Source: Bifidobacterium longum subsp. longum JCM 1217 (GTDB taxonomy: Bacteria > Actinomycetota > Actinomycetes > Actinomycetales > Bifidobacteriaceae). Taken from it: DNA of 32,000 nucleotides. The stretch spans positions 1,200,001 to 1,232,000 of the forward strand of contig NC_015067.1 of assembly GCF_000196555.1 (NCBI RefSeq). Direction: 5' to 3'. The notes beneath the pieces are model-generated. The model was given only the letters and a program-made list of their open reading frames with translations. It made no database searches and had not been told where the DNA came from. Position numbers and translations under genes: made by a program. Shown one piece after another: positions 3,808-30,845 of this stretch (positions are counted from its first letter, which is position 1; every line of letters starts with the position of its first letter).

Positions 3808-3850
3808 CATGATGCACGCCCCCTATGCGGCATAGGGGGCGTGCATCATG
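3808..3850. promoter_or_regulatory. 43-bp perfect palindrome (two 21-bp arms around G3829) in the divergent T4SS control region
   Basis: catgatgcacgccccctatgc g gcatagggggcgtgcatcatg. The arms are exact reverse complements. The right arm ends in the ATG of the 3848 gene, and the core contains the GCATAG box seen upstream of other genes. Confidence 0.7.
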
Positions 3851-4837
3851 CGAAGGAAAAGAATCGACGAGGACGCGGGCTGGCGCGCCCCCGACCCGAA
3901 ACGCGACGGCGACCCGGACCGCCAGTTCTCGAGGCGCGCGTTCCGCCTCACCGGCCTGCGGCTGCTCAGATGGCAGCGGTGGATCGCGATCATGCTGCTC
4001 CTGATCGTCGCCTATCTCATGTCGAACCCGCCGGACGCGTCGAAGCCCGCCCCCGCCGCGGACCTCGATCCCGCGGGACGCGTCGAATCATGGGCGTTGA
4101 CGGAGCAATGGCTCGCCAAGGGCGCGTTGGGCGCGGACGCGCGGATCGTCAGCTGGAACGGACAATCCCACGCCACCGTGTCGGACGGGTCCAAGGACAT
4201 GACATTGAGCGTGAACACGCTGATCGTGGACTCCGCGGCCGGCTGGTGGCGGGTCAGGACCACGGTCACGCCCGACGGGCGCCTGTCCGGCTGGCCGAGC
4301 GTGGAACGACTCGGCCTGGCGGGCGCGGACGACAGGGGCGATACGGGCATGTGGAAGGACACGCTCGGACAATTGACCGCGTCCGACATGCTGGACACGA
4401 CCGTGCGCAAATGGGCGGACGCGTTCATGGGCTCCGATTCGGACATGCTGACCGTGCTCGTCAACGATCCGGATCCGAACGCCTGGTATCGGGCGCAGGG
4501 GCTCGGCAAGGCGGCGGCGGCCACCATCGACGGGGGCGCCTACCTGGACAAGGGGAACGTGGACCGTAACGAACGCAGGTCGGACCGGGCGGCGCTCAGG
4601 GTCACCGTCACCGTCGCGCACGCGGACGCGGGCGACGGTTCGGCCGCCCAATCCCAATACTCGTACGATCTGCTGGTCGCCGACCCGGACGGCACGCCGC
4701 GCATCCTCGCCTGGGGGGCTCCCGGCACGGGCGCGACCCTCAGGGAGCATGGGAACCGGGCGCCCGGCGCGCGCCCCGCGCACGACGCGTCATCCGACAC
4801 GTCCGCGTCCGCGGGCACGGGGGGCGCGGCGAAATGA
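3848..4837 (+). CDS. TcpC-like conjugative transfer protein (N-terminal TM anchor plus two soluble halves)
   Basis: 329-aa ORF with a basic N-terminus followed by one TM (WIAIMLLLIVAYLM). Located immediately upstream of the CHAP and NlpC/P60 hydrolases, as in Gram-positive T4SS loci. The family call is contextual. Confidence 0.55.
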   Translation: MRRKRIDEDAGWRAPDPKRDGDPDRQFSRRAFRLTGLRLLRWQRWIAIMLLLIVAYLMSNPPDASKPAPAADLDPAGRVESWALTEQWLAKGALGADARIVSWNGQSHATVSDGSKDMTLSVNTLIVDSAAGWWRVRTTVTPDGRLSGWPSVERLGLAGADDRGDTGMWKDTLGQLTASDMLDTTVRKWADAFMGSDSDMLTVLVNDPDPNAWYRAQGLGKAAAATIDGGAYLDKGNVDRNERRSDRAALRVTVTVAHADAGDGSAAQSQYSYDLLVADPDGTPRILAWGAPGTGATLREHGNRAPGARPAHDASSDTSASAGTGGAAK

Positions 4838-5595
4838 GGGGAACGCATACCCGGGTCCGGCATGGGAGGACGGACATGACGGCGGACACGAGACGGGATC
4901 GGACCAGACTGCGGCGCGGGCGCGTCAGGCAGCGGCATGTCGCCCTGCTCCTCCTGTTCGCGCTCGCGGCGTCGGGCATGGGAGCATGGCTCGCGAACCC
5001 CGCGCCCGCGACGGCGGACACGACGGTCCGCGCCTCGATCGGCGTGCAGGGCCGTCCCGACCCGTTCCCCGCCGCGGACCGCGACCGGACGCGCACGGAC
5101 CTGACGGTGGACGGCACATGGGATATGGGCGACCGGCCGGAGGGCAAGCTCACCATCATCCACGCGGACAATCCAACGGTCCGTGACCTGATCAACGGGC
5201 GCGACGAGGATCAGACTCCGACCGGATTCAATCCGGACCATGCGACCGGCGACACGGGCAACGCGTACGCGTACGGGCAATGCACATGGTGGGCGTATGT
5301 GCGGCGCACGCAACTGGGATTGCCGGTCGGCAGCCGGCTGGGGGATGGCGGCATGTGGGCCGATTCCGCCAAGGCGCTCGGCTATTGGGTGGATGATACT
5401 CCCCGACAAGGGGATGTGATCGTGTTCAGCCCGGCGCAGGTCAACAACGCATGGGGGCACGTCGCCATCGTGGAGAAGGTCAACGGCGACGGTTCCATCG
5501 AGATCAGCGAAGCGAACGTGAACGGGCAGGTCGGCCCGTTCCGACGCGCCATCGAGGCGAAACAGACGCATGCATACCAGTACATCCACTATTAG
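4834..5595 (+). CDS. CHAP-domain peptidoglycan amidase/endopeptidase
   Basis: ATGA overlap with the upstream stop. N-terminal TM/signal (VALLLLFALAASGMGAWLA). CHAP catalytic Cys context YGQCTWWAY and His context WGHVAIVEKV. Confidence 0.85.
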   Translation: MRGTHTRVRHGRTDMTADTRRDRTRLRRGRVRQRHVALLLLFALAASGMGAWLANPAPATADTTVRASIGVQGRPDPFPAADRDRTRTDLTVDGTWDMGDRPEGKLTIIHADNPTVRDLINGRDEDQTPTGFNPDHATGDTGNAYAYGQCTWWAYVRRTQLGLPVGSRLGDGGMWADSAKALGYWVDDTPRQGDVIVFSPAQVNNAWGHVAIVEKVNGDGSIEISEANVNGQVGPFRRAIEAKQTHAYQYIHY

Positions 5596-6280
5596 AAGAG
5601 CTCCCATTGTCCTGACGGTTCTCCTGCCAATCGTCATGCTCGCCATGCCGACGATCCCGGCATGGGCGGACGCCGCCGATTCGGCTCCAATCCACATGGC
5701 GAGCAGTGTCAGATCGTTCCCGAAACACTTGGTTCCGCATCGTTCGTTCAGTGAGGCCGTATCGACCGACGTGGACGGCTCATGGGGAGGCATCGAAACC
5801 CTGGACGTGCCGCATGCGGAAAGCCCCGAGGAACAGGCCACGCGCATCCAGGCCGAACAGGCGCGACAGTCGGAGGCCGCGTCACGCGCCGAGCCACGCA
5901 CACCGGCCGTATCGGCGCCGACGACAGGTGACAAGGAGAAACCCGCCTCGGATACGGCCGCCGCCCTGGTCTCCTACGCGCTCCAATACCAGGGCGCGCC
6001 ATACGTGTACGGGGGCAATACGCCTGCCGGCTGGGATTGCAGTGGTTTCACCCAATACGTGTACGCGCGGTTCGGCATCCAATTGCCGCACCCGTCCGGC
6101 ATGCAGGCCACGATCGGCACGCCCGTTACTGACCCGCAGCCGGGTGATCTTATGGCAAACGCGGGGCATGCGGGCATTTACATCGGCAACGGTCTGATGA
6201 TCCATGCGATGAACCCGGTCGACGGCACGAAGGTCACGGCCGTCATGCCCGGCATGGGATATTATCGCCTGCTCGGCTAG
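5570..6280 (+). CDS. NlpC/P60-family peptidoglycan endopeptidase
   Basis: Signal-like N-terminus (IVLTVLLPIVMLAMPTIPAWADA). NlpC/P60 motifs YVYGGNTPAGWDCSGFTQYVY and GHAGIYIGNGLMIHA. Confidence 0.85.
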   Translation: MHTSTSTIRRAPIVLTVLLPIVMLAMPTIPAWADAADSAPIHMASSVRSFPKHLVPHRSFSEAVSTDVDGSWGGIETLDVPHAESPEEQATRIQAEQARQSEAASRAEPRTPAVSAPTTGDKEKPASDTAAALVSYALQYQGAPYVYGGNTPAGWDCSGFTQYVYARFGIQLPHPSGMQATIGTPVTDPQPGDLMANAGHAGIYIGNGLMIHAMNPVDGTKVTAVMPGMGYYRLLG

Positions 6281-6302
6281 GGCACGCTATACTGTGTGGA
6301 AA

Positions 6303-6352
6303 GGGTCGGCGCGCGTTTTCCGGTTCTCTGTCCGAACGACGCGCGTCGACCC
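6303..6352. terminator. Hairpin between convergent genes (13-bp stem with one mismatch and a large loop)
   Basis: gggtcggcgcgcg (6303-6315) pairs with cgcgcgtcgaccc (6340-6352) and is followed by ttctttgt. Lies between the stop at 6280 (+) and the stop at 6360 (-). Confidence 0.4.
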
Positions 6353-6359
6353 TTCTTTG

Positions 6360-6626
6360 TCACCGGTTGTTGTTGGCGTACGGGTTTTGCGTATTGCCTG
6401 ATGTTACGGGCGGTTGGGCCGCCTGCTGTGGAGGCGCGTATTGGCCTGCGTCCGGCGGCGGGATCATGCCATTGCCGGTACCGGGCACCTGAGGCGGATA
6501 CGGGTTCACCGGAGGCAACGGCCCCCGCGCCCGCGCGGCGGACGGTGTCCGGGTCGGAAGGATGGCCCGTATGGCGTGTTCCCGTAGTGGTTTTTGTCCG
6601 GTCAAGCCGCATCCTCCCGTCCGCAT
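6360..6626 (-). CDS. Hypothetical Pro/Gln-rich protein (weak call)
   Basis: 88-aa ORF ending just before the convergent hairpin. Third-position GC is moderately high by hand count. Low-complexity PPVNPYPPQVPG...QQAAQPP tail. The start is uncertain. Confidence 0.3.
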   Translation of the reverse strand: MRTGGCGLTGQKPLREHAIRAILPTRTPSAARARGPLPPVNPYPPQVPGTGNGMIPPPDAGQYAPPQQAAQPPVTSGNTQNPYANNNR

Positions 6627-6819: not shown

Positions 6820-7668
6820 TCAGTCGATGTTGCCGAGCAGTCGGGCGGCGAGCCGGTAGCGGCGGTCCATCCCGCGCGCCGCCGTCCCCGGATCCGCCTC
6901 CTCGCCCATATGCGCGTCCGTGTCCTCCAAAAGGATCCGCTCCCGTTCCGGATCGAGCCCGTAGCGGCCGGCGAGCGCACGGGAATACTGTCCCACGCCG
7001 TCCCCCTCCGCGATGCGTTCGCCCAACGCGTCCCATTCCTTCTCGTCCGCCAGGGCGAGCATGTTGTCGCGCCGGACCTGCTCGTTGAGCTGGCGGGCTT
7101 TGGCGAGCATGTAGGCGGCCGCCTCCCTGGTGCCGGAGATCTCCTTGCCGCGTTTCTCCTCATAGGCGCGGATCTCGTCCGGATGCCTCCGTCGATGCCG
7201 TTCGAACGCGTCGATCGCGTCCACATGCTTCTTCGACGGTTTCGGCTCCTGCCTCAACCGTTCGATCTCCGCGTCCACCCACCGGTCGAGTTCGCCGAAT
7301 TCGGGATCCCGTTCGCGTTGCAGGTCGCGGCGGGCGAGCATGAACGCGGCCGCCTCCCGGTCCGACGAGATCGGGTCGCGGCGTCGGGCGACGAAAGCGC
7401 CCGCCTCGTCCGCATGCCCCGCCCGCCATCGGTCGAACGCGGCGGCCCACCGGCGGGTCGTGCGGTGTCTGACGTCCCGTTCCTCCAGTTCGAGCAGCCG
7501 ACCGTAATGCCCCTCCATGAGGGAGACGAACCGGGCGTGCCCATCGTCCGTCACGGGCGTGGGCGCGGCGACGTCATCCGGGGCCGCGCCCGTGTTTTTC
7601 GCCTCGTATCGGCCGCCTTCGGGCGTGCCCTTCGGCTTGTGGCTCCTGTTGTTCCTGTCCACGGTCAA
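6820..7668 (-). CDS. Leader-family protein A: conserved N-terminal module plus a unique helical body with internal repeats
   Basis: TTG start preceded by AGGAAAGGGGAA. N-terminus is (M)TVDRNNRSHKPKGTPEGGRYE...PDDVAAP. The body has repeated REAAAFMLARRDL / REAAAYMLAKARQL segments. Confidence 0.7.
   Translation of the reverse strand: MTVDRNNRSHKPKGTPEGGRYEAKNTGAAPDDVAAPTPVTDDGHARFVSLMEGHYGRLLELEERDVRHRTTRRWAAAFDRWRAGHADEAGAFVARRRDPISSDREAAAFMLARRDLQRERDPEFGELDRWVDAEIERLRQEPKPSKKHVDAIDAFERHRRRHPDEIRAYEEKRGKEISGTREAAAYMLAKARQLNEQVRRDNMLALADEKEWDALGERIAEGDGVGQYSRALAGRYGLDPERERILLEDTDAHMGEEADPGTAARGMDRRYRLAARLLGNID
7603..7667. repeat. Left copy of a 65-bp perfect inverted repeat (partner at 9174..9238)
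   Basis: The reverse complement of 7603-7667 is identical to 9174-9238 (tgaccgtggacaggaacaacaggagccacaagccgaagggcacgcccgaaggcggccgatacgag). It covers the first ~22 codons of leader genes A and B. Confidence 0.9.
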
Positions 7669-8622: not shown

Positions 8623-8915
8623 GCCTCCGGGATGTAGACGGGGGCCTGCACCTGTTCGAGCAGCCAGTTGATCGCGGGCGTCAATCCGGTCATGTTCAGG
8701 CCGAGCACGCCGAGCACGCCCATGATCATGATCGCGGACAGGAGCAATGCGAGGACGCGCAGGCCCATGGAGAGCGCGGACTGGGCGCGGTTGAACGCGA
8801 AGCCCACGAGGAGCGCGATCATGAGGACGATGAAGTACACGCCGAACGCGCCCGGCGCGGTGACGCTCGACCAGAATGCGCGCCAGCCGGTGACGCCGAT
8901 ATCAACAATGCTCAT
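8619..8915 (-). CDS. Small three-TM membrane protein
   Basis: 98-aa hydrophobic ORF. Its stop overlaps the start of the nuclease gene (8619-8622). GGGGGAGG lies upstream of the ATG, and the T of a GCATAG box is 12 nt from the start. Confidence 0.6.
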   Translation of the reverse strand: MSIVDIGVTGWRAFWSSVTAPGAFGVYFIVLMIALLVGFAFNRAQSALSMGLRVLALLLSAIMIMGVLGVLGLNMTGLTPAINWLLEQVQAPVYIPEA

Positions 8916-8936
8916 GGCCTCCCCCTATGCCCCAAA

Positions 8937-8965: not shown

Positions 8966-9172
8966 GGGGGGGCGAGGGACATGATGGCGGATGCCGATGG
9001 ACGGGATCGGCCCGTGACGGGCGTGGAACGAGAGGCTGCGGGCGTGTTCGACGAAAACGCGCGCCTGCGCGGACCCGACCCGCGGGCCGCGGCCGGCGAT
9101 GCATCATGCCCCGTTGCGCACGCATAGCCTCCGCACGCAACGGGAACCGGAACGGGCGGAGGAAACGGCGTA

Positions 9173-9643
9173 ATGACCGTGGACAGGAACAACAGGAGCC
9201 ACAAGCCGAAGGGCACGCCCGAAGGCGGCCGATACGAGACGAAAGGCGGCGCCACGGGCCCGGATGACGTGAGGCCGCCCACCACGGCCGAAAACGCGTC
9301 CGACATCCTCGACCGGGCACGGGAACGCGGCCTCGACTGGGATCTGCTCGCCGGACGAAGCGAGAACGGGCGCAGCATCAACCTGGACGCGCGGGGTCAC
9401 GGCGACCGGCGCGTCCACGCGGAACCCGACGGGCACGGCGGCTGGGACCTCGTCTACCGGGAATGGAGGAAACCCACATTACGCGAATACAACGGGCCCG
9501 GCATCCACCCGTTCGGCGTATTCGGCTGGATGTCCGACCGGATCAACGGGAACGCGGAGACATGGATCCCCATCCGTCGCGGGCACGCCGCCAATGACGA
9601 CCAGCTGCTCGACGCCGCCGCCGACTGGTGCGGGACCGACTGA
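9173..9643 (+). CDS. Leader-family protein B: conserved N-terminal module plus a unique 110-aa body
   Basis: GGAGGAAA upstream of the ATG. MTVDRNNRSHKPKGTPEGGRYE...PDDVRPP. The first 22 codons are identical at DNA level to gene A. Confidence 0.7.
   Translation: MTVDRNNRSHKPKGTPEGGRYETKGGATGPDDVRPPTTAENASDILDRARERGLDWDLLAGRSENGRSINLDARGHGDRRVHAEPDGHGGWDLVYREWRKPTLREYNGPGIHPFGVFGWMSDRINGNAETWIPIRRGHAANDDQLLDAAADWCGTD
9174..9238. repeat. Right copy of the 65-bp perfect inverted repeat (partner at 7603..7667)
   Basis: See the partner entry. Identity was verified base by base. Confidence 0.9.
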
Positions 9644-9681
9644 AACGGGAAGCCGGCCGACGGCACGCATAGCCATCCCGC

Positions 9682-10320
9682 ATGAGCAAAGACACGCACG
9701 GCCGGACGCACCGGCCCGCCGGACTGCCGAAAGGCGTGGCCGGCACCTACGACAGGAATCCCGGCACGAACGGCGACGACATCGCCCCGCCCATGCCCGT
9801 CCACGACGATCCGGACATACTGCGCCGCGAACTGGCATCCATCCCCCAGCGGGACGGTCCGGAATACGACGGGCTGCGCACCAGGCTCGCCCGCGCCGAA
9901 CTGAGGCAAATGGAATCGAAAGAGAAGCATGCCACCGCCGCCGACATGTTCCGCTCACTCAGCGAAACAGGAGGCGGGACATGGAGTCCGCGAAACGACG
10001 CCACTCCCGTTGTCGGGTTCTGCCATTCACCATACCCCGAACGGAGCAGGGTCGTGGCAATGCCCTCCACCACCGATGATTTCGCACGACTGTCCATGGA
10101 ATATCTCATGGACAATCGCGATCTGCTGTCGAAAGACGGCAACTATCTGGGATTATGGCGCAACCCGGCCGACGACAGATTATATGTCGACGTCTCCGTC
10201 TGCGACATGGACGCGCATGACGTCCGGGACGCATGTGCCAAACATGATCAGATAGCCTTCTGGGACATCCAATTGGGTGAAGAGGTCATCGTGAATCCAG
10301 ACGCGCGATCAGGACAATAA
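9682..10320 (+). CDS. Leader-family protein C: divergent N-terminal module plus a unique body
   Basis: MSKDTHGRTHRPAGLPKGVAGTYD...GDDIAPP. No SD. CGCATAGCC box with its T 12 nt upstream of the ATG. Confidence 0.7.
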   Translation: MSKDTHGRTHRPAGLPKGVAGTYDRNPGTNGDDIAPPMPVHDDPDILRRELASIPQRDGPEYDGLRTRLARAELRQMESKEKHATAADMFRSLSETGGGTWSPRNDATPVVGFCHSPYPERSRVVAMPSTTDDFARLSMEYLMDNRDLLSKDGNYLGLWRNPADDRLYVDVSVCDMDAHDVRDACAKHDQIAFWDIQLGEEVIVNPDARSGQ

Positions 10321-10335: not shown

Positions 10336-10599
10336 ATGGCACGACAGCTTGAAGGCCTATACGATCCGAAGACCGGAGCCGTAGGCATGGCAAAGTTCAG
10401 CGTCATGATGATGCGTAAACTCAACGGGCACATCACCAGCCGTCAGGAAATCCTGGACATGCAGGACACGCTGGGCCGCGAATGGACGGAAGAGGAGATA
10501 AAGGAGATCCTCAAGGCGAACGGGACGTCCGCCGACGATCCGTCGCAGACAGCCTTACGCGCATCGACATGCGGGGGCACGCATAGCCGTCCCGCATGA
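10336..10599 (+). CDS. Small hypothetical protein (87 aa)
   Basis: AAGGAG 7 nt upstream of the ATG. Its stop TGA overlaps the ATG of the downstream leader stump. Confidence 0.6.
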   Translation: MARQLEGLYDPKTGAVGMAKFSVMMMRKLNGHITSRQEILDMQDTLGREWTEEEIKEILKANGTSADDPSQTALRASTCGGTHSRPA

Positions 10600-10637: not shown

Positions 10638-10705
10638 AGGACGGCCGTCCTGTCCGCGATCGCGCATGCGCCCCCGCGCGCCCGGGACGCATAGCCGGAA
10701 CCATC

Positions 10706-11479
10706 ATGAACGATAAGCCTCTCTTCGAAATCCGGCAGGGCACGACGCCCATGCTCGTCCACACACCACACGCGGGCCGGCTCGTCCCCGACGGATTCGA
10801 CCGCACCCGCCTGACGGACGCGGAAGCATTCGACCAGACATGCGAACAGGTACGAGACCGGCACGCGGACACGCTCGGCCTCATGATCGCCGCCCGGCTC
10901 CACGCAACCATCATGCTCGACCACACGACCCGCATGTGGTGCGACCCGGAACGATACCCCGACGACCGGGAGGAGATGAACACGGCCGGCATGGGCGCCA
11001 TCCCCACACGCGACATCGACGGGCATCCCCTCTACAAGCCCGGACAGGCACCCGGCATGAGGGAACGCGGACAACGGTTCCGCCTCCTGTACACGCCATG
11101 GCACCGCATGCTGCAAGCCCAATGCCGGACCATGCTCGACACGTACGGACGATGCACGATCATCGACGTCCACACCCACCCCAGAGAACCACGCCCGTTC
11201 GAACCGCACGCCGACCAGCCGCGCACCCAGACCATCATCGGCCACAACAACGATCCCGCATCCCGGGCGATCGGGGCACGCGCCGCCGCGCTCCTCATGG
11301 GCCGCGGCCTCACCGTCGGCGTCAACACCGCACACCGGGGCGCCATCACCCCCGACGGCATACACGACATACGGCTCGCCAGCATCATGGTCGAAACCAG
11401 ATGGGACACGGCCGCCGACCCCATGGCGCGCCATGACATCGCCGACGCGATCGCACGCGCCCTGGAGGGACGCGCATGA
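10706..11479 (+). CDS. N-formylglutamate amidohydrolase (FGase, PF05013-like) family zinc hydrolase
   Basis: Family motifs HTPHAGRLVP, TRMWCDPER (D-x-N/E-R block) and IIDVHTH. 257 aa. Confidence 0.7.
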   Translation: MNDKPLFEIRQGTTPMLVHTPHAGRLVPDGFDRTRLTDAEAFDQTCEQVRDRHADTLGLMIAARLHATIMLDHTTRMWCDPERYPDDREEMNTAGMGAIPTRDIDGHPLYKPGQAPGMRERGQRFRLLYTPWHRMLQAQCRTMLDTYGRCTIIDVHTHPREPRPFEPHADQPRTQTIIGHNNDPASRAIGARAAALLMGRGLTVGVNTAHRGAITPDGIHDIRLASIMVETRWDTAADPMARHDIADAIARALEGRA

Positions 11480-11817
11480 AACCACGCATGCAATACCGGA
11501 GCCGACGCGTCCACGGCATCCTGTTCGAACCCGACCATGCGAGCATGATCATCCGCAACAAGCCCGGCCGCCACTACCTGATCCACGGCGACGACACCCG
11601 TCTCATCACCGGGTTCGACACCCCGCTGGACGCGCCCGACACCATGGGCTACGGCATCTACCACGAAGCCGACCGGCCGAACACCATGTGGATACGCGAC
11701 CGGACCGGCCTACGCCGCATCCAAGGCACGCCCGCCACGCCGCTCGAACGCGACGCGCCCTGGAACCGCGTCGCCACCCGCATCCCCAACCATCCCATCC
11801 CCAGCCCATACGCATAG
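11476..11817 (+). CDS. Hypothetical protein (113 aa)
   Basis: ATGA overlap with the FGase-family gene. Its stop TAG is the TAG of the next CGCATAG box. Confidence 0.5.
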   Translation: MKPRMQYRSRRVHGILFEPDHASMIIRNKPGRHYLIHGDDTRLITGFDTPLDAPDTMGYGIYHEADRPNTMWIRDRTGLRRIQGTPATPLERDAPWNRVATRIPNHPIPSPYA

Positions 11818-11826
11818 GCGCACCGC

Positions 11827-12771
11827 ATGAGCACAGACAGGAACAACCGGAGCCACAGGCCGAAAGGCCTGCCCCCACGCGTGGCCGGAACATTCGAACC
11901 GGAAGCATGCGGCGGCCACGAGACCGGCATACGACCGCCCGAACCACCCGACCGCATCGAACTCATGGAACTCGAACGCCTCGCCCGCACCATGCCCGCA
12001 CCACGGCCCGGCGACATCGCATGGCGTTTCGGCACGCACACCATCCCCCAGCAGGCCATCGACATGCGCTACGGGCGCGACGACATACGCCTCCAACGGC
12101 TCGTCATCCTCACCCACGCGGACGAGGACACGCGCCGCATGCTCGCCGCACGCATGCACGACCACGATTGGATTCGCAGCCACGCCACACCCCTGTTCAA
12201 AGACCGCGCATGCATCATCATCCCCGAACCGGACCCCTGGGATGAACCCGGACACGAACCCGGCCGGCCGGACACACGCCCCGTCTGGCCGCACCCCATC
12301 GACACGCGCATGATCGCCGAAGACTGCGCCGCCCACCTCGACATCCGACGCTCATACACGCCCACGCGCGTCAGCCGCACGGGGAACGAAACCCACGTCG
12401 AATGCGTGGACGACACGACCCACACGTCCCGCTCCTACCGGACCGGAACGAACATCGCGCATCTCCCCGACGGAGCCTGCATCGAACATGCGGCCGACGG
12501 ACGATGGCATGTCATCCACGACGATCCGCCGCTCCCCCCACGCCCCGCCGACAGGCCGCACGCACGCGAAGACACGCGCCCGCACGACCCCCGACCCGAC
12601 ACGGAACCGGAACCGGAACCAAACCCGGATCCGCCCGGGCGATCCGACGAAGCGGACAGGCCGCGACGCCCGGCCTCCGACCCGCGCATGCGCCAAGCCT
12701 GGATCCGGTTCCTCACCGGACTGTTCCAGGGCGTGTCCAGCATCATCCGCGAATCCAGGCGCGCCCACTGA
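11827..12771 (+). CDS. Leader-family protein D: N-terminal module plus a unique body with a Pro/Asp/Glu-rich tail
   Basis: MSTDRNNRSHRPKGLPPRVAGTFE. No SD. CGCATAGG box with its T 12 nt upstream. Confidence 0.7.
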   Translation: MSTDRNNRSHRPKGLPPRVAGTFEPEACGGHETGIRPPEPPDRIELMELERLARTMPAPRPGDIAWRFGTHTIPQQAIDMRYGRDDIRLQRLVILTHADEDTRRMLAARMHDHDWIRSHATPLFKDRACIIIPEPDPWDEPGHEPGRPDTRPVWPHPIDTRMIAEDCAAHLDIRRSYTPTRVSRTGNETHVECVDDTTHTSRSYRTGTNIAHLPDGACIEHAADGRWHVIHDDPPLPPRPADRPHAREDTRPHDPRPDTEPEPEPNPDPPGRSDEADRPRRPASDPRMRQAWIRFLTGLFQGVSSIIRESRRAH

Positions 12772-12988: not shown

Positions 12989-13103
12989 GTTTTCCCTTGC
13001 AAAAAACCGGGTTTCGGCATGGTTTCCATGCCCGGACGCCGGGATTTCCCCTTCATGAGGGACGCATACCCGATCCGCAAGGGACGATGGAAGGGGAAGG
13101 CGT

Positions 13104-17344: not shown

Positions 17345-17476
17345 ACCGGGCGCTATGCGTCGCGGCGAAAGGAAAGGTGCCGCCGAAGCCTTTGGCGGCA
17401 CGGCCCGTCCTGGGCGGATACGCCGACGGGCCGCCGCCAATAAGCCGGAAGTCCCGCACCGTTTGCCGAACATGAC

Positions 17477-19513: not shown

Positions 19514-19561
19514 TGGGGACGCATGCGGAATGCCGTAGGATTGGAATCGAAGGAGGACGTG

Positions 19562-20919: not shown

Positions 20920-20986
20920 TATTCGACAATGACGGGGACGCATGCGGGATGCCATAAAGGATTTCTCCGCATGCAAGGAGCCCGTC

Positions 20987-22516: not shown

Positions 22517-22619
22517 TCCGCATGGCCCGGACCGTGACCGCGCAAAAAACGTCGGACGGCGCGCACTCCAGGATTTCACGCCCTCCCGTAAGCGTCCGGG
22601 CCCGGCATAGCCGGCACGC

Positions 22620-25600
22620 ATGATCAGATTCGAATACGAATACCCCGTCCGCGTGAAGACCCAGGCAGGCGACAGCGTCGAATTCGACCCGGCGAACAAC
22701 GGCGGCCACCGGGCGCTCCTCGACCGGCAGATAGCGAAATGGCAGGCCGGGTATCCGGAGGCCAAGGCCGCCCGCCTCGAATTCATCGACCGGGACCGGC
22801 ATGTCGCCGTCCTCGTCGACCGGCAGTCGTCCAGCGTCGACATGCGCGACGATTCCAGCCTCGAAGTCAATCTGAGCGCCGAACATTCGAAACCCAGCAA
22901 GGGCGCCGAGGTGCAGGCCGTATACGAGACGAAATACCCCGGATACCGGCTCACCGTGTTCCACCCGTACGAAGGCAAGGCGCTCCTCGAACGGCTCACG
23001 GACGCGCAGGCCACGGCCCGCGCCCAGATCGCCACCGAACTCGGCCTGCACGACTGGGATCTCAGGGTCACGCCTTTGGAGGACGGCGGATGGAAGGTCC
23101 TCCTCGACGAGGGCATCACCTACCAGCCGTCCAAAATGGACACGCGCATGGAGAAGGCCTGCCTGACCGTCGGCCGGCTCGGCTGGTGGTTTGACGCCGA
23201 CCCCGACACCGGCGTCATCGAGATCCATCCCGGCGAGCCGCCCACCTTCCCCAAACTCGTCCCCTTCCCGTTCGACCGGATCGGCGACCCGACCGTCCGC
23301 GACAAGACCCCGTTCGGCATCCGACTGGCCCGCCCCGGCGAGACCGGCGAACCCGCGTTCGTCGACTGGACCCAATCCCTCGGCCTCCTTATAGCCGGAT
23401 TGTCAGGTGGCGGCAAGGCTCTTCCCTTGGATGCGCGTATCCCCGTGCCCGTCTCCGAACGCTTCCCCGCCGGCTGGGCTAGGAACCGGGACCTCAAAGA
23501 AGGCGATCCGGTGTACGGGCGCGACGGGCGGATCATCCCCATCAAGGACTTCAGCGACGTGGAGGAGCTGCCCATCTACCGTCTGACCCTGTCCGATGGC
23601 CAGATTCTGGAATGCGCGGACAACCATCTGTGGACCGTATCGGATTCCGTCATGCGCCAGGCCATGTCCGACGAACGAGGCCGGGAGCGACGCGAACAGA
23701 CCATCCGGCTCGTGAATCGTTTGCGTGACGAAGCGGCCACGGTCGGGGATGGCGTGAGAGCCAACCGACGCCATATCGCCATCGACCACGGGCTGCCCCC
23801 TAATGTGACCCAGAACTGCGCGGAACGGCATGATCTGGTCGGGTCGGATGGCCTGTGCGACGAGGCGGAACTGCTGCACGCCATCGCCGACGAACGCGAA
23901 TCCTACGTCATGCCCGGCGGCGTATGGGCGAACACCGTCGAAACGATCCTCACTGCACGCGAGATATCGGAGAATCCGAAACCTCACGGCAAATGCTGGG
24001 GTATCCGCCTTGCCAATCCCATCGAGAATCCGGACGCCAACCTGCCGCTCGGCCCGTATTTCCTCGGCACCTGGCTTGGCGACGGCATCTCCCGTGCCGG
24101 GGCCATCTGTCTCAACGATGACGACGAACCGCATATGCAACCCGACATTCTCTCCAGTCTGGGTGGTTCGATCCGTCGCGGAAAAGTTGAACACGGGGCG
24201 CATACCTGGTTCTATGACATGGATGACGGGCGCATCCTCGTAACCGAACTCAAAAGGCTCGGCCTGTACATGGACAAGCACATCCCCGCCGTCTATCTGC
24301 GCGCCTCCAAGAGCCAGCGCCTCGCCCTGCTCCAGGGGCTCATGGATACGGACGGTTCGGTTTCCAGTCGCGGATCATGCGAACTGTGCTTCACCAATCA
24401 GCGGCTTGCCGAAACCGCATTGGAGCTCATCCGCTCCCTGGGCATCGCCGCCGGCATGCACTCCGGACGGGCGGGCTATACAAAAGACGGCGAACGTGTG
24501 GAGGCCGGCATCCGGTATCGGATCCGTTTCACCACCTCCAAACCCGTGTTCCGCTTGCCCCGCAAACTGGCACGGCTCAAGACCGACACCCGTTCCACGC
24601 AGGATTGGCTGTACATCACGTCCTGCGAGCCGACGGGGCGCACGGAGCCGGTCCGCTGCCTGAACGTGGCGACCGACGACCACCTGTTCCTCATGGGCGG
24701 GTTCGTGCCCACGCATAACAGCGTCACCATCAATGACGTGACCACGTTGGGCATCGGCACGGGCGCGGAACTGTACGTGATCGACCATTCCACGAAGGCC
24801 ACCGACTACTACTGGTGCCGGCCGTGGATCGCGGACCGGGGCTGGGGCGCGGATTCGCTGCTCCAGACCGCCGGACTGTTGAAATGGCTGCTCGACGACA
24901 TCGAGGACGGCGGCGAGCGCGCCAGGGCGTGGAAGAGCCACGGCTGGCAGAACTGGTACGACGACCTGTCAGACGAGGACAAGAGACGATACCCGTACCG
25001 GCTGATCGTCGTGGACGAGCTGTCCCAGCTGACGGTCGGCGCGAAGGATGCGACCAGCCTGCCGAAGAACCCGCTGCCGCCGGTCATGGAGAAGATGTTC
25101 GAACAGCAGGTGAAGGCGCTCATCCTGTCCACCCTGATCCGCATCCTTCAGATCGGCCGAGCCTATGGCTACCGGGTGGTGGTCGCCACCCAGATCGCGT
25201 CGTCGACGACGGGCATGCCGCCCGCGTTGCGCGGCAACCTGGGCAACAAGGTCATCATGGGCGCGAAGGTCAACGACGCGCAGAAGAACCTGATCTTCAA
25301 CATCGCGAAGGACGTGCCCGACATTCCGGCGAACGTGATCGACGAGGGCGTGTCCAAGGGCGCGGGCCTGAGCGAGATGGAGGGGCAGCCGCCCTACGAT
25401 TTCAAGAGCTCGTTCCCCATGCTTGGGCATCATGCGGGCGTGGCGGCGCTCGGCAAGGCTTTGGCCGAACGGATCGGCCTGCCCGACGGGATCGGCATGG
25501 ACGAATACCTCGACTCCCTGGACAAGGACACGCCTTCGAACCCGGAGTTCGAACAACGGGTCATGGAACGCATCCGGTTCCCCGAGGCGGAATCATATCT

Positions 25601-25811
25601 GCGTTTCCCGTTCCTGCAGGCCATCAAGGACAAGTGGGATGAAAGCCTCGACGAGTACGGGGGCGGCCCGGCCGATGCCGGATCCGGGGGGAACGGGGAT
25701 GACGGCACCGCACCCGCCGGCCGACCGGTCGCACCGGCCGCCTCCGGCCCGGAACCGTCCGGCCCGCTCATGGACGCGGCCGAACTGGCGCGCATCATGC
25801 GCCGGGGCTGA
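22620..25811 (+). CDS. FtsK/SpoIIIE-family conjugative coupling/translocase ATPase (TcpA/TraB-like), interrupted by an intein
   Basis: Walker A is split as GLSGGGK | S. Walker B is YRLIVVDELSQL. VVVATQIASS...LRGNLGNKVIMG is typical of FtsK-like motors. No SD, and the T of a GGCATAGCC box is 12 nt upstream of the ATG. Confidence 0.85.
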   Translation: MIRFEYEYPVRVKTQAGDSVEFDPANNGGHRALLDRQIAKWQAGYPEAKAARLEFIDRDRHVAVLVDRQSSSVDMRDDSSLEVNLSAEHSKPSKGAEVQAVYETKYPGYRLTVFHPYEGKALLERLTDAQATARAQIATELGLHDWDLRVTPLEDGGWKVLLDEGITYQPSKMDTRMEKACLTVGRLGWWFDADPDTGVIEIHPGEPPTFPKLVPFPFDRIGDPTVRDKTPFGIRLARPGETGEPAFVDWTQSLGLLIAGLSGGGKALPLDARIPVPVSERFPAGWARNRDLKEGDPVYGRDGRIIPIKDFSDVEELPIYRLTLSDGQILECADNHLWTVSDSVMRQAMSDERGRERREQTIRLVNRLRDEAATVGDGVRANRRHIAIDHGLPPNVTQNCAERHDLVGSDGLCDEAELLHAIADERESYVMPGGVWANTVETILTAREISENPKPHGKCWGIRLANPIENPDANLPLGPYFLGTWLGDGISRAGAICLNDDDEPHMQPDILSSLGGSIRRGKVEHGAHTWFYDMDDGRILVTELKRLGLYMDKHIPAVYLRASKSQRLALLQGLMDTDGSVSSRGSCELCFTNQRLAETALELIRSLGIAAGMHSGRAGYTKDGERVEAGIRYRIRFTTSKPVFRLPRKLARLKTDTRSTQDWLYITSCEPTGRTEPVRCLNVATDDHLFLMGGFVPTHNSVTINDVTTLGIGTGAELYVIDHSTKATDYYWCRPWIADRGWGADSLLQTAGLLKWLLDDIEDGGERARAWKSHGWQNWYDDLSDEDKRRYPYRLIVVDELSQLTVGAKDATSLPKNPLPPVMEKMFEQQVKALILSTLIRILQIGRAYGYRVVVATQIASSTTGMPPALRGNLGNKVIMGAKVNDAQKNLIFNIAKDVPDIPANVIDEGVSKGAGLSEMEGQPPYDFKSSFPMLGHHAGVAALGKALAERIGLPDGIGMDEYLDSLDKDTPSNPEFEQRVMERIRFPEAESYLRFPFLQAIKDKWDESLDEYGGGPADAGSGGNGDDGTAPAGRPVAPAASGPEPSGPLMDAAELARIMRRG
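23418..24719 (+). mobile_element. 434-aa intein with a LAGLIDADG homing endonuclease domain, inserted in the P-loop
   Basis: Starts ALPLDARIPV right after GGGK and ends FVPTHN before SVT, so removal restores GLSGGGKSVT. Block B is GQILECADNHLW and block F is VRCLNVATDDH. LAGLIDADG motifs are YFLGTWLGDGIS and LALLQGLMDTDGSV. Confidence 0.85.
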
Positions 25812-26017: not shown

Positions 26018-27052
26018 TCATCCATGCGCCGGATAAGCGTCCCGTGGCGTCCCGTCGTCGGCGATGCTCGCCCAATGGTATCCGTAGGCGACGTGATCCG
26101 GGTCGCCCGCCACATGCCCGATGTTGGTGGCCGACCCGGCGGGCAGTCCCAATGCGACTGCGGCGGCGCGCAACGACGGGTATATGGTTCCCGTCTCCAC
26201 GCAGCGGATGGCGTGCCGGTTGCCTTTCGGCGCGGATCCCGCCCTCAGCCGGGCCAGGAGCGCCGGATCAGCCGAGGCCAGCCGGGCCAGCCATTCCGGG
26301 CTCGCCCAATGGAAGCCGCCGGCGCGGCGATCCGGATTGTCTCGCACATGGTTGATCAGGTCGCGCATGCCGGGCGTGTTCCTTGTCCGGCCCGTCAGGG
26401 CCAGGGTTTCGGCGGCGCGCATCGCGTCCCCGTATTCGACGCCCGTCTCCACGCATACGACCGGGCCGCGCAGCATGGTCTCGCGCATCGTCCTGCGCCA
26501 GGCGGCGAGCAGGCCGGGATGCCGGCGGCGTATCCGCCCGTACGTGACGCCGTCGACCCAGTGGACGCCCCCGTTCCGCCTGTCCAGCCGGTTGCGCTTC
26601 TGCAACCGGGATACGGGCATGCCATGCGCTTCGGCGGCCAGCGTCATCGTGTCGTACGCCTCCCCCGTTTCGGCGCACACCCACAGTCCCCTGAGCCGCT
26701 CCCCCTCCACAAGCCCCCGCAGCCGGCGGCGGCCTTGTTCGCCCAGCGCATCCCAGCGTCCGGCGGAAATCCAGTGCGCGCCGCCGGCGCTGCGACGCCA
26801 TGGCTGCGCGCTTCTGGCCGCCACGCTGATCCTGCCCACGGCCGCCCCGGTCTCATCATGGGCGGCCTTCAGCGTGTCGAACCGTCTGCCGTCCTCGATG
26901 CGCACCACGCCGGACAACCGTCGCGGCTCGAACTCGAATCCCGCGGCCTCCAGACGACGGGTCTGCCCCGCGTCGAGCCGGCCATGCCGCCACGCGTCGC
27001 GGATCCGCGCCGCATACGCCTGGTATCGTCTGGCTTCAACGCTTGTCGCCAC
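26018..27052 (-). CDS. Helicase-associated-domain-like N-terminus plus four tandem NUMOD1-like DNA-binding repeats
   Basis: GTG start overlapping the helicase 3' end by 17 nt. Four repeats of the pattern h-x-C-h-E-T-G-x-x-Y-x(3)-AA-x(10-25)-GG-x-HW: RIEDGRRFDTLKAAHD..GGAHW, VCAETGEAYDTMTLAAEA..NGGVHW, VCVETGVEYGDAMRAAET..AGGFHW, RCVETGTIYPSLRAAAVA..AYGYHW. Confidence 0.7.
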   Translation of the reverse strand: MATSVEARRYQAYAARIRDAWRHGRLDAGQTRRLEAAGFEFEPRRLSGVVRIEDGRRFDTLKAAHDETGAAVGRISVAARSAQPWRRSAGGAHWISAGRWDALGEQGRRRLRGLVEGERLRGLWVCAETGEAYDTMTLAAEAHGMPVSRLQKRNRLDRRNGGVHWVDGVTYGRIRRRHPGLLAAWRRTMRETMLRGPVVCVETGVEYGDAMRAAETLALTGRTRNTPGMRDLINHVRDNPDRRAGGFHWASPEWLARLASADPALLARLRAGSAPKGNRHAIRCVETGTIYPSLRAAAVALGLPAGSATNIGHVAGDPDHVAYGYHWASIADDGTPRDAYPAHG

Positions 27053-28295
27053 GGCGTTCCCCCAATCGTCGGATCACGTATTCGATCTTCCCGTCCATGC
27101 TCATGCCCAGCATGTCCTCCAGACGGGAGGCGAGGATGCGGATGTCGGCCGTCTCGTCCACGATCCGCATGCCCGCCAGCGGGTTTCCGGCATCCATATC
27201 CGCGCCGCCGGCCGCATCCGCGGGGGTTCCATGGGCGAGCAGCCATCCCAGCCCCGAATAATTGTCCGATATGTCGAACACGAGGGGCGTCCGGTTGCCC
27301 GTCGCGTCCAGGACGCGCCCCAACTGCTGGAGGTACACGTGCGGGCTTGTGGTGGCGCGCAGCATGACGATCGCGTCCACGCCGTCCAGATGCACGCCCT
27401 CGTTGAGCATGTCCACGCAGTACAGGATCTTCCGCCCCGGCGCCGAATCCGCCTCGAACGCGCGGATCGCGCCGTCGGGCCGCCCGTACCGGCTGTGGAT
27501 CGCGTAATCCCTCGCATCCGGGCCGAACCATTCGCGGGCATGGGCGCGCGCCCCCTCCAGCCGGGTCAGGTCGGTGCAGAACACGATGACGTGCGCGTCC
27601 GGCGGCAGGCGGCGGGCGAACATGGCGTCGACGCCTGCCATGCCCGTCACGGCGCGGCGCAGCCGTTCGAACAGGCGGCGCGCGTCCGGCGTCCCGCACC
27701 GTTCCACGCGGGGGCGGACGCGTCCGATGAGCGCATCCCCCTCGTATCCGGCGATGACGTATTCGGGGACGGGCAGTATCCGTCGCGCCCATGCCTCGCT
27801 CAATGTCATGCGGGAGGCGACCCGCCCGTCGAACAGCTCGTCGGTCATGTCCCTGGCCCCGTCCCCGTACCGTCTGGGCGTGGCCGACAGTCCGACGATC
27901 CTCGCCCCGGGGTTCGCGTCCAGGAGACGGCGCACCCCCGCGCCCCAATGGCGGGCCCCGCAATGATGGTATTCGTCGAGGATGATCAGGTCCGCATGCG
28001 GCATGGGGTTCCCGCGGCGCGTGCCGATCATCAGCTTCGCGTAGGTGAGGACCGTCACCCGGTCGGCCCGGAAGCCCGGGATGTCCCGTTCCAGGCATGG
28101 CAGCCGGCCGTCGGTGATGGTCCTTGACGGAGTGCACCAGATGACGTCCCATGACGGGCGGGCGGCGATGAGCGCGGCGGCGACGTAGGATTTGCCGGTC
28201 CCGGTCGGCTGGATGACGGCCGCCCTGTCCGTCATGTCGAGCATGGCCTCCAGTCCGCGCAATGCGGTCCGATTATGCGGGAGCAGTCCGTTCAT
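27036..28295 (-). CDS. Superfamily-2 DEAD/DEAH-box helicase (type III restriction Res-like core)
   Basis: Motif I QPTGTGKS, motif II LILDEYHH, motif III LSATP, motif VI QQLGRVLD. ATGA overlap with the upstream gene. Confidence 0.85.
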   Translation of the reverse strand: MNGLLPHNRTALRGLEAMLDMTDRAAVIQPTGTGKSYVAAALIAARPSWDVIWCTPSRTITDGRLPCLERDIPGFRADRVTVLTYAKLMIGTRRGNPMPHADLIILDEYHHCGARHWGAGVRRLLDANPGARIVGLSATPRRYGDGARDMTDELFDGRVASRMTLSEAWARRILPVPEYVIAGYEGDALIGRVRPRVERCGTPDARRLFERLRRAVTGMAGVDAMFARRLPPDAHVIVFCTDLTRLEGARAHAREWFGPDARDYAIHSRYGRPDGAIRAFEADSAPGRKILYCVDMLNEGVHLDGVDAIVMLRATTSPHVYLQQLGRVLDATGNRTPLVFDISDNYSGLGWLLAHGTPADAAGGADMDAGNPLAGMRIVDETADIRILASRLEDMLGMSMDGKIEYVIRRLGERRGDKR

Positions 28296-29074
28296 GCCGT
28301 CGGGTATGCGTTCCCCTCGCGTTTCTCGAACGTTTCGAGCATGGCGGGCACGCCTTCCATGGGGAACGTGGCCGTCGTGCCGAGGATGACGCCCTTCAAC
28401 AGGTTCGCGGCCACATGCTCCGCCTCCCGGACGGCTTTCGTGTTCGAGGCGGGACGCCGGTGCGCGGCCGCGTACTCGCGCATGACGGGCAGTTGGCGCG
28501 CCAGCTCGTCGTCATGCATGCCGTGCGCGCGGATGCGCCGCAATTCCGCGAGGTCGTCGTCCGGCAGGCGGCACGGCCATGGGGCGGACGGGTCCGCGCA
28601 GACGAGGCCGGCGGCGAGCATGAGCCGCATCGATTCCGCCTGCATTTTCCGCCGCCGCCGGGCGTCCATGTCCCGTTCCAGCAGATGCAGGTTCGAGGCG
28701 ACGTTGCCCAACGCCATGTCCACGGTCCGCCGTGTCGCCAGACCGGCCGCCAGGGGCTTCAGACCGTCCGGCAGCCCCGCGTCGAGGAGCAGGCACCCGT
28801 CCGGCAGGGACAGGGCCTCGAGCATGTTCGGGGATCCCTTGGCGACGCCTTTCAGGAACGCGACGGGCGTCATGATGGTGATGTCGGGATCGTGCAGCCC
28901 GATCGTCGCGTCCGCGCGATCCAGGAGGATGTCCTCCGGATCCGGCGCGATGACGATCCTCAGGTCGATGTCGCTGTCCGGACGGGCGAGCCCGTGCGCG
29001 TGGCTGCCGCCCACCCATGCGGCGAGCACGCGACGGGCCATGTGGGGTGCGAGCGCCTGTTCGAAACGGTTCAT
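28292..29074 (-). CDS. Pol-beta-superfamily nucleotidyltransferase (RlaP/PF10127-like)
   Basis: Start chosen at MNRFEQ (ATG 29074, ATGA overlap with the upstream stop). NTase signature GGSHAHGLARPDSDIDL (G-S ... D-x-D). Confidence 0.7.
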   Translation of the reverse strand: MNRFEQALAPHMARRVLAAWVGGSHAHGLARPDSDIDLRIVIAPDPEDILLDRADATIGLHDPDITIMTPVAFLKGVAKGSPNMLEALSLPDGCLLLDAGLPDGLKPLAAGLATRRTVDMALGNVASNLHLLERDMDARRRRKMQAESMRLMLAAGLVCADPSAPWPCRLPDDDLAELRRIRAHGMHDDELARQLPVMREYAAAHRRPASNTKAVREAEHVAANLLKGVILGTTATFPMEGVPAMLETFEKREGNAYPTA

Positions 29075-29430: not shown

Positions 29431-29479
29431 CTTTACATTATTGTAAAGCCCCGGCCCCGGACTTTACAATATTGTATAG
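29431..29479 (-). promoter_or_regulatory. Two 18-bp AT-rich palindromes that carry a sigma70-like -35/-10 for the minus-strand operon
   Basis: ctttacattattgtaaag (29431-29448) and ctttacaatattgtatag (29462-29479). On the minus strand, TTGTAA (29469-29464) and TACAAT (29445-29440) are separated by 18 nt, about 35 nt upstream of ATG 29403. Confidence 0.45.
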
Positions 29480-29801
29480 TTTTCCGGCCCGTTTTGTATG
29501 CGTGTATGCATCTGTATGCATCCGGGGATGCATACAGAAAAAGCCCGGAAAAAGCCCGAAAACCCTTATATATAAAGGGAAAAACAGAATTCCTTTCTCT
29601 TGTATGCATTGTATGCATCAATATAAGGGGTTTCTTCCCTTTTTCCCGAATCCCCTATAAGGGAACGATGCATACAATGCATACACGCCCCCGGACCATC
29701 CCCGGAACGTCGGAAACAAGCCGAAACGGGAAGAGAAGATGTATGCATCCCCGGATGCATACGGATGCATACACGCGCCCCGGAATGCATACACGGCCCG
29801 G

Positions 29802-29827
29802 GGCCGGCGACCGCCGGCCACCGTTTT
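29802..29827 (+). terminator. Terminator-like hairpin plus T-tract inside array unit 1
   Basis: ggccggc gacc gccggcc, then accgtttt. Confidence 0.3.
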
Positions 29828-30259
29828 GCCGTGAGGGTGCCCCGCCTTTAGGCGTGGGGAGGACGTCAAGCGATCCTCCGATCCGTTTCGCCGGGCTCCC
29901 CGGGGGTTCGCGATGCTGTGGAGCCGCATGCGCGGGACCGTGTATGCATTCCGGTTCGCGTGTATGCATTTGTATGCATCCGGGGATGCATACAGAAAAA
30001 GCCCGGAAAAAGCCCGAAAACCCTTATATATAAAGGGAAAAACAGAATTCCTTTCTCTTGTATGCATTGTATGCATCAATATAAGGGGTTTCCTTCCTTT
30101 TTCTCGAATCCTCTATAAGGGAATGATGCATACAATGCATACACGCCCCCGGACCATCCCCGGAACGTTGGAACCAAGCCGAAACGGGAAGAGAAGATGT
30201 ATGCATCCCCGGATGCATACGGATGCATACAGGCCGGCCGGAATGCATACACGGCCCGG

Positions 30260-30285
30260 GGCCGGCGACCGCCGGCCACCGTTTT
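30260..30285 (+). terminator. Terminator-like hairpin plus T-tract inside array unit 2
   Basis: Identical copy 458 bp downstream of the first. Confidence 0.3.
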
Positions 30286-30737
30286 GCCGTGAGGGTGCCC
30301 CGCCTTTAGGCGTGGGGAGGACGTCAAGCGATCCTCCGATCCGTTTCGCCGGGCTCCCCGGGGGTTCGCGATGCTGTGGAGCCGCATGCGCGGGACCGTG
30401 TATGCATTCCGGTTCGCGTGTATGCATTTGTATGCATCCGGGGATGCATACAGAAAAAGCCCGGAAAAAGCCCGAAAACCCTTATATATAAAGGGAAAAA
30501 CAGAATTCCTTTCTCTTGTATGCATTGTATGCATCAATATAAGGGGTTTCTTCCCTTTTTCCCGAATCCTCTATAAGGGAATGATGCATACAATGCATAC
30601 ACGCCCCCGGACCATCCCCGGAACGTCGGAAACAAGCCGAAACGGAAAGAAAAGATGTATGCATCCCCTGATGCATACGGATGCATACAGCCCGCCCGGA
30701 ATGCATACGCGCCCCGGGGCCGGCATAGCCGCGCCGC

Positions 30738-30845
30738 ATGAACGGCTTGAGACCATACGCGGTCCGGTTCACGGTGTCCGCCTCCCTGTGGATGACGACC
30801 ACCGGCGACGAGGTGTGTTTTAGCAAGTTGGCGTCCGCTTTGTGA
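30738..30845 (+). pseudogene. 5' fragment of a gene truncated by the IS21-family insertion
   Basis: ATG with the T of a GGCATAGCC box 12 nt upstream and no SD. Reads [26 protein letters not shown], then runs into IS-end sequence and stops after 35 codons. Confidence 0.5.

Follow-up and report, generated by a model that had tools for sequence, protein, structure and literature searches.

The 32-kb stretch of DNA analysed here (the window; contig NC_015067.1 of Bifidobacterium longum subsp. longum JCM 1217, positions 1,200,001 to 1,232,000) carries a short box of GCATAG type that recurs at a near-constant distance upstream of start codons. The window has a GC content of 55-73% along its length and ~66% overall, and it lies in an element of ~56 kb and 67% GC from B. 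longum and B. breve, clearly above the 56-61% GC of the sampled host DNA. Exact protein look-ups found this element in ~56-kb contigs from Bifidobacterium isolates and gut metagenomes and also integrated in the 2.3-Mb chromosomes CP049767.1 and CP065209.1, indicating that the window belongs to an integrative conjugative element (ICE). Its genes include CHAP and NlpC/P60 cell-wall hydrolases, two EcoRI-type adenine methyltransferases, a GmrSD/HNH nuclease, a superfamily 2 (SF2) helicase, an IS21 helper gene and a 1063-aa FtsK/TcpA-like coupling ATPase, which has the Walker A motif GLSGGGKS and an intein of ~435 aa inside it.

Ten boxes had been listed in the original prediction with their positions and distances, and all ten were recovered; distances are counted from the T of the box to the A of the start codon unless stated otherwise. 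At six sites the distance is 12. On the plus strand, a GCATAG box (9667-9672) followed by 9 nt and ATG 9682 (9667-9684) precedes a 212-aa gene without a Shine-Dalgarno (SD) sequence, an arrangement that we call class A (T at -12). The same arrangement leads an SD-less 314-aa gene of class A (ATG 11827, 11812-11829) and the 275-aa core gene (ATG 30738, 30723-30740), which is cut by IS21 here and intact in the loci L014 and L010. A duplicated box with the first codons of the 9682-type gene forms a 13-codon stump (ATG 10596, 10581-10598), and a GCATAGCCGG box precedes ATG 22620 of the intein-bearing coupling protein (22605-22622). The sixth site, on the minus strand, is a GCATAG box (8925-8930) with 9 nt to ATG 8915 of a 98-aa membrane protein (8913-8930). 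Both methyltransferases were correctly placed at distance 11 (class B, T at -11), each with 8 nt between box and ATG on the minus strand: a GACGCATAG box before ATG 17344 (17342-17358) and a GACGCATAC box before ATG 14799 (14797-14813); the latter box, however, reads GCATAC and not GCATAG. The last two of the ten have the T farther away, at -14 for the GACGCATAG box before ATG 10706 of an FGase-like gene (10689-10708, plus strand) and at -15 for ATG 3848. The box of 3848 had been placed inside a palindrome, which proved to be a perfect 43-bp palindrome (3808-3850) with two back-to-back boxes (CTATGC-G-GCATAG), its plus arm leading to ATG 3848.

Six sites add to these ten. The minus arm of the palindrome is a mirror box (3810, minus strand) that faces a leftward operon for conjugation resembling a type IV secretion system (T4SS), whose conserved start is the SD-led ATG 3791. 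Three plus-strand boxes also stand well upstream of their starts: a GCATAG box at 9122 before the SD-led ATG 9173 (9122-9175), which would be a leadered version of the same promoter; a AACGCATAC box at 4845 before ATG 4876 of the CHAP hydrolase (4845-4878), with an SD sequence, GGGAGG, in the predicted short leader; and a GACGCATAC box at 13064 before ATG 13104 of a conserved 221-aa gene (13064-13106). Counted from the first base of the box, the four SD-bearing heads lie 37 nt (3791, leftward), 51 nt (9173), 31 nt (4876) and 40 nt (13104) downstream. On the minus strand, a AACGCATAC box (GCATAC) with 8 nt to ATG 28295 of the SF2 helicase (28293-28309; distance 11) sits inside the 3' end of the upstream gene and would thus be an internal promoter. 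A GCATAG box with 9 nt to ATG 55 (53-70, minus strand; distance 12) lies in the 3' end of a 985-aa gene and has a GGAGG as well, making it the sole ambiguous site.

The spacing of box and start codon is non-random. GCATAG occurs 12 times in the window, counting both strands, and an ATG follows 11-15 nt past the box T in 11 of the 12; the remaining copy is the one at 9122. In comparison with 300 dinucleotide-preserving shuffles of the window, GCATAG with an ATG at 11-12 nt was observed 8 times against 0.21 expected (shuffle maximum 3), and with an ATG at 11-15 nt 11 times against 0.56. GCATAC by itself is unspecific, as it fills a tandem-repeat array and also occurs within genes; only the longer (G/A)ACGCATAC form is start-associated.

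A set of 127 independently called starts was assembled from the window, both of its extensions and three relatives; for the window we used the calls that others had made for the identical element. GCATAG was the top enriched 6-mer in the 30 nt upstream of these starts (18 versus 0.52 expected, p=2.5e-22), followed by CGCATA and then by SD-type words. The box and the SD sequence exclude each other. An SD-like word precedes 1 of 22 box genes versus 59 of 105 others (Fisher p=3.5e-6), bearing out the earlier remark that most of the box genes lack a purine-rich SD; within the window, genes with the box at -11/-12 have none, whereas nearly all other genes have an AGGAG-type SD. Moreover, box genes are restricted to ATG, which is the start codon in 22/22, whereas GTG, TTG or ATT serves 15/105 of the others. 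Several public gene calls choose starts that differ from the box-predicted ATG (L014 1305/1338, 2428/2437 and 5301/5235; L013 17234/17144 and 20092/19990), and the box could serve for correcting them.

The position of the box follows transcription units. Box genes are the heads of such units, and genes within operons have no box and carry ordinary SDs. At heads that bear an SD, the box is found 28-51 nt upstream of the start, and this shift indicates that the box is not a translation signal tied to the start codon. The sites 10706 and 3848 have a C-A step 11-12 nt past the box T, which predicts a 3-nt leader, AUC-AUG, for both. Divergent gene pairs lie 38-45 bp apart with one box per gene, leaving no space for a separate upstream promoter. 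Inverted box pairs occur at divergent gene pairs only, with a spacing of -2 (overlapping), 1, 8 or 14 nt.

We aligned 56 non-redundant sites across the element family, a set constructed such that the T and A of the box are invariant. The distance from T to ATG is 12 in 33 sites (class A) and 11 in 23 (class B). Class A reads (C/G)GCATAG, 9 nt, ATG, with a weak CCG at -9 to -7 and G-2 C-1; class B reads (G/A)ACGCATA(C/G), 8 nt, ATG. The conserved bases are G-15, C-14, A-13, T-12, A-11 and G/C-10, and those at -15, -14, -13 and -10 are invariant or nearly so. Single boxes are asymmetric, with no dyad within the site. Position -1 is C or T in 55/56 sites and is followed by A at +1, which would be the usual pyrimidine-purine pattern of a start site. 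Upstream of -20, the information content of the 56 sites stays below 0.6 bits throughout in both classes, so that no -35 element is apparent, and an ECF (extracytoplasmic function)-type -35 (GGAAC-type, with a short -10 following after 16-18 nt) is absent in both classes.

The vegetative promoter consensus of the host is TTGACA-17-TATAAT, and within its -10 most weight falls on positions 1, 2 and 6 (PMC5746004). As had been predicted, the hexamer of the box lacks the T at -7 of a canonical TANNNT: it is present in 1/33 class A sites, and the matching position of class B (-6) is T in 3/23. The T is also missing in the AT-rich spacer of a relative with 44% GC, Bombiscardovia, which argues that its absence is not a by-product of high GC. 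A consensus scan for sigma-70-type promoters gave 4 hits versus 3.0 expected, none at box heads. Some further starts without an SD have, at the box distance, a variant with one change (CCATAG, ACATAG, GCATAT, GCATAA or GACGCATGC). Two near-identical stretches of ~28 nt (19513-19540 and 20932-20960; GGGGACGCATGCGG(A/G)ATGCC(G/A)TA) sit ~40 nt upstream of the SD-led start 19562 and probably of 20987; they have the look of another, related type of promoter in which G replaces the box A.

The box is conserved at orthologous positions. Orthologues of the coupling protein in L010 (87% identity), L007 (59%) and L009 (53%) keep GCATAGCCGG-N5-ATG at distance 12, and the DNA upstream of the box is otherwise unalignable. 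A scan of one genome per species added four coupling-protein loci at 40-42% identity: the box is kept at distance 12 in B. canis and B. cuniculi and at distance 11 (GCATAGaaaataccATG) in Bombiscardovia coagulans (44% GC; L018), and in B. castoris (L019) it is followed ~52 nt later by an SD-led GTG. The box is therefore found at 11-12 nt in six orthologues with 40-87% identity and is displaced in a seventh. It is also kept before the orthologues of the 98-aa and 329-aa genes in L007 and L018. In L018, 8 of 14 GCATAG copies are promoter-like in position (4 leaderless and 4 leadered) and the layout is that of the window, with one divergent pair at the T4SS-like operon, another at the 98-aa gene, and a leadered box at 9061 upstream of start 9107 in the same arrangement as 9122 and 9173 here.

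The box is also restricted to this element family. We sampled 183 kb of the B. longum chromosome around ten other copies of the IS21 element, located via the 261-aa IstB. Three box hits fell at real gene starts in this sample, all of them in L028, another mobile element; none did so in seven loci (~128 kb) of mostly chromosomal gene content. In the 91-kb megaplasmid pMP7017, an ATG follows at 11-12 nt in 1 of 24 GCATAG copies, and not at an annotated start. The placement of the motif is thus non-random in the element, and gene starts are unmarked in the ~128 kb of host chromosome and the 91 kb of pMP7017 sampled.

Taken together, these data make it likely that a Bifidobacteriaceae ICE family has a private promoter class, that the box is its core recognition element, of -10-like type, and that this class yields leaderless mRNAs. 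A -10-like element of leaderless transcripts was also the reading first proposed for the box, and it fits every computational test run. The fixed 11-12 nt from the TA step to a pyrimidine-preceded A is the geometry of a -10 element and a start site. The lack of an SD, the restriction to ATG, the position at unit heads, the leadered versions and the back-to-back boxes of gene pairs 38-45 bp apart together fit a leaderless promoter. RNA polymerase would engage the box so that the T and A of the latter fall at about -12/-11, and transcription would start at a purine 11-12 nt downstream of the box T, mostly the A of the ATG. The mRNA would thus have neither a leader nor an SD and would be translated by the leaderless pathway, and at the genes that keep an SD a box 28-51 nt upstream would yield a short leader. 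Recognition would differ from the housekeeping TANNNT/-35 mode. We therefore infer transcription starts at the ATG and a reader that is a sigma or another factor acting outside the usual sigma-A mode.

Leaderless mRNAs and -10-only promoters are already known in Actinobacteria, which use the leaderless pathway efficiently. For leaderless translation in mycobacteria, a 5'-terminal ATG or GTG is both required and enough (PMC4633059), and in B. pseudolongum ~15% of start sites are of the leaderless kind (PMC4782308). Our literature search found no account of the present box and nothing relevant that combines GCATAG with leaderless transcripts. To our knowledge, an element-private box without T-7 that controls nearly every unit of a conjugative element has not been described before.

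Several points weigh against this reading. T-7 is among the two key recognition bases of sigma-A and is missing in 32/33 class A sites, and variants with G for A (GACGCATGC) occur at the box distance, a poor fit with an A-11 that flips out. The start sites given for the box genes are predictions from the sequence. Scans of ~50 element proteins against Pfam, NCBIfam and PHROGs, which covered ~52 kb of the element, turned up neither a sigma factor nor an RNA polymerase, single-subunit (T7-like) and YonO-like ones included. The sites 9682, 10596 and 11827 have common first codons (ATGAGCAnAGAC) and are partly paralogous; together with 3848 and 3810, the two arms of one palindrome, this reduces the window to about nine independent sites. 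The flanks of the box sites other than 9682, 10596 and 11827 are unrelated.

A stronger version, in which a dedicated candidate specificity factor would rely on the box alone for recognition and would give the element family private, -35-independent leaderless expression, can be put forward only tentatively and appears doubtful to us. Such a factor could be a sigma-like or polymerase-redirecting protein encoded by the element, or an unstudied alternative sigma of the Bifidobacteriaceae. A DxDGD pattern search for a two-barrel polymerase across the same ~52 kb gave trivial hits only, none in a large protein, and the 985-aa and 817-aa proteins appear by sequence to be of membrane or surface type. 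The 221-aa protein (13104-13769), a neighbour of the coupling protein, had no match in PDB or Pfam when a profile of it and its five orthologues was used, and a word-based homology search with it returned near-identical proteins only.

Among the alternatives is an operator role, in favour of which stands the restriction of the box to the element family. The box would be a site for an element-encoded regulator on the promoter core of every unit, switching the whole element jointly, in the manner of KorA/KorB on IncP plasmids or the stoperators of mycobacteriophage L5, and leaderless promoters would bring about the fixed distance to ATG only incidentally. The element does encode proteins of DNA-binding type, the candidates being an XRE-type helix-turn-helix (HTH) protein just outside the window and a 344-aa protein with four HTH modules; GCATAC is the core of dense repeat arrays immediately upstream of two box promoters; and a 34-bp plasmid-specific motif over the -10 of 19 pMP7017 promoters has been read as a transcription-factor site (PMC10832533). 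However, no TANNNT or -35 exists besides the box that could be the underlying promoter, so the box would need to be promoter and operator together. It is also short and asymmetric, unlike the sites of dimeric repressors, with palindromic pairs only at divergent genes and at variable spacing, and neither the ATGCATAC arrays nor the four-HTH protein were found in distant relatives that keep the box (~20 kb of each sampled). We therefore hold a pure operator to be unlikely; an operator role added to the promoter role is possible.

The near-fixed distance to ATG, the replacement of the SD, the ATG bias and the confinement to the element would equally suit a signal at the RNA level, a non-SD ribosome-recruiting or processing site at the place of the SD. 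It would resemble the start-associated sequences (SAS) of Cluster K mycobacteriophages, for which these features hold as well (PMC3203893); at -15 to -10 the box occupies roughly the SD position. Yet it has no complementarity to the anti-SD, is missing before operon-internal genes with ordinary SDs, and at SD-bearing heads lies 28-51 nt upstream, beyond action on the start codon, while the divergent pairs at 38-45 bp would require promoters within the neighbouring gene. Seven sites folded with z-scores from -2.5 to +1.6 and no common fold, and Rfam returned 0 matches, so that the RNA-level option raised with the original prediction is unsupported, and we rate it as very improbable. Even less credible, and already disfavoured, is the view that the box is a by-product, a cassette of promoter and N-terminus copied along with a paralogous gene family in a GCAT-rich background. 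Sites 9682, 10596 and 11827 do have a common box, spacer ending and first codons, eight paralogues have a common ~40-aa N-terminal domain, and GCATGC occurs at twice its expectation (39 versus 18.2). Most sites, however, precede unrelated genes with unrelated flanks (the methyltransferases, helicase, coupling protein, membrane protein and FGase-like gene), the paralogues 9173 and 6820(-) carry an SD and not a box near the start, and the box is kept at orthologous positions from 67% to 44% GC. The leaderless promoter thus remains the reading that we prefer.

A 458-bp tandem repeat (2.7 copies, 96% match) spans 29500-30724 and contains 18 forward ATGCATAC and 17 inverted GTATGCAT units with an AT-rich core, including near-palindromes of the form GTATGCATCC-CC-GGATGCATAC. 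Similar arrays are found at L013 16905-17186, L010 15265-17163 and L028 6642-11219. The array stands immediately upstream of two box promoters, those of the 275-aa core gene (30738) and of a methyltransferase adjoining the XRE regulator gene. It has GCATAC in common with the box and is confined to close relatives. We asked whether the ATGCATAC repeats might be one signal with the box and rejected this, since distant relatives that keep the box lack them. By its appearance the array could be an origin of transfer or replication, or a set of sites bound by a regulator. The 8-bp ATGCATAC repeats have a candidate binder in the putative four-HTH protein of 344 aa (26018-27052, minus strand), encoded just downstream of the SF2 helicase, which has four tandem repeats of ~50 aa (V.C.ETG..Y...AA..G...GG.HW). 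The HTH assignment rests on the match of its repeat profile to PDB 8b6e (sCTP-23166; E=1.7e-9), whose fold is the DNA-binding HTH of the homing endonucleases I-TevI and I-HmuI and reads 6-8 bp per module (PMC10319021). The protein has three close homologues only, and an AlphaFold model made without an alignment was unusable (predicted local distance difference test score 42).

The eight paralogues have the common ~40-aa N-terminus M..DRNNRSHRPKG.P.G.AGT(F/Y)E...DV.PP and unrelated C-terminal parts. Five are in the window (6820-7668 on the minus strand, 9173-9643, 9682-10320, 11827-12771 and 18191-19513) and three outside it (L013 14557, L013 19013 and L014 6082). One weakly matches the polyvalent-protein domain LPD28, and the N-terminus of Bombiscardovia L018 9107-9784 is similar. 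This N-terminus may be a shared signal for delivery via the conjugation channel.

Other features of the window concern its mobile character. The intein of the coupling ATPase (22620-25811) occupies approximately residues 265-700, adjoins the Walker A motif and holds a homing endonuclease of LAGLIDADG type; homologues of ~627 aa without an intein exist. An IS21-family element (~30823-32000; IstB 30926-31711) cuts the 275-aa core gene ~28-35 codons past ATG 30738, and IS21 copies of this kind are present at many places in B. longum chromosomes. Two segments closely match pMP7017-type B. longum megaplasmids: 5098-6405 (97% identical), which covers the CHAP and NlpC/P60 genes, and 18331-19442 (87%), which covers part of a 440-aa gene. 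The remainder of the window has no near match, indicating recent exchange between two kinds of mobile element. On account of the 1.3 kb at 97% identity, megaplasmids of this type were initially suspected as the source of the window, but they do not show the box geometry. GCATGC, the SphI site, occurs 39 times in the window versus 18.2 +/- 4.3 in dinucleotide shuffles, an excess that could reflect methylation or another sequence bias of the element, which encodes several methyltransferases.

If confirmed, the leaderless promoter reading would point to a new way of promoter recognition in the Bifidobacteriaceae. It would give a simple rule for start-codon correction and promoter finding in these elements, as well as compact promoters for the engineering of Bifidobacterium that work without a leader or a ribosome-binding site. 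The element is a widespread conjugative element of gut Bifidobacterium, and the box would offer a handle on the switching of its transfer genes, which bears on gene flow in the infant gut.

With regard to known systems, the nearest mechanism is the actinobacterial leaderless TANNNT promoter, and the nearest phenomenon is the Cluster K SAS. Like the leaderless promoters of actinobacterial sigma-A, the box has T-12, A-11, no SD, a predicted 5' ATG, a pyrimidine at -1 and no need for a -35; unlike them, it lacks T-7 and has G-15, C-14, A-13 and G/C-10. It also differs from host sigma-A promoters in that it does not mark gene starts in the sampled host chromosome. The copies of the Cluster K SAS (GGGATAGGAGCCC) are likewise short and asymmetric, share one orientation and keep a near-fixed distance to the start codons of many unrelated genes within one actinobacterial mobile element; they show a strong ATG bias and are absent from the host (PMC3203893, PMC12699233). 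However, the 13-bp SAS holds the SD core AGGAG 3-7 bp from the start, whereas the box has no SD and lies 9 nt away (PMC3203893). The box also occurs far upstream of SD-led genes and is not accompanied by a 17-bp inverted repeat. The pMP7017 motif is similarly replicon-specific, lies over the -10 of 19 promoters of a Bifidobacterium mobile element and is absent from chromosomes (PMC10832533). In contrast to the box, it is 34 bp long and AT-rich, has a canonical -10, TATACT, within it and stands before leaders that contain ribosome-binding sites.

Promoters with a -10 only that are read by a dedicated sigma include the T4 late promoter TATAAATA with gp55 and the streptococcal ComX box TACGAATA. 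They resemble the present system in having a single extended box of 8-9 bp near -10, no -35 and a private regulon; TACGAATA and class B GACGCATA have 6 of 8 letters in common, possibly by chance. They differ in that their mRNAs are leadered and the box stands elsewhere relative to +1, and no dedicated sigma gene was found in the element. The stoperators of Cluster A mycobacteriophages are 13-bp asymmetric repressor sites, which, like the box, are present in many short, transcription-oriented copies throughout a mobile element, but their distance to start codons is not fixed, and they take the place of neither the promoter nor the SD. These stoperators are also mentioned in PMC3203893. A more distant parallel comes from the Glaciihabitans sp. 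(Microbacteriaceae) plasmid NZ_CP043654.1 (L033), whose coupling protein is 36% identical to that of the window. This plasmid has its own motif, GCC(G/A)CACAC, which ends 9-10 nt before the ATG of 7/45 annotated genes that lack an SD, and CCGCATGTCT, a CGCATG-type repeat, lies in at least 7 of its intergenic regions. The start-anchored box of this plasmid suggests that private promoter boxes of this kind may be general in actinobacterial type IV conjugative elements.

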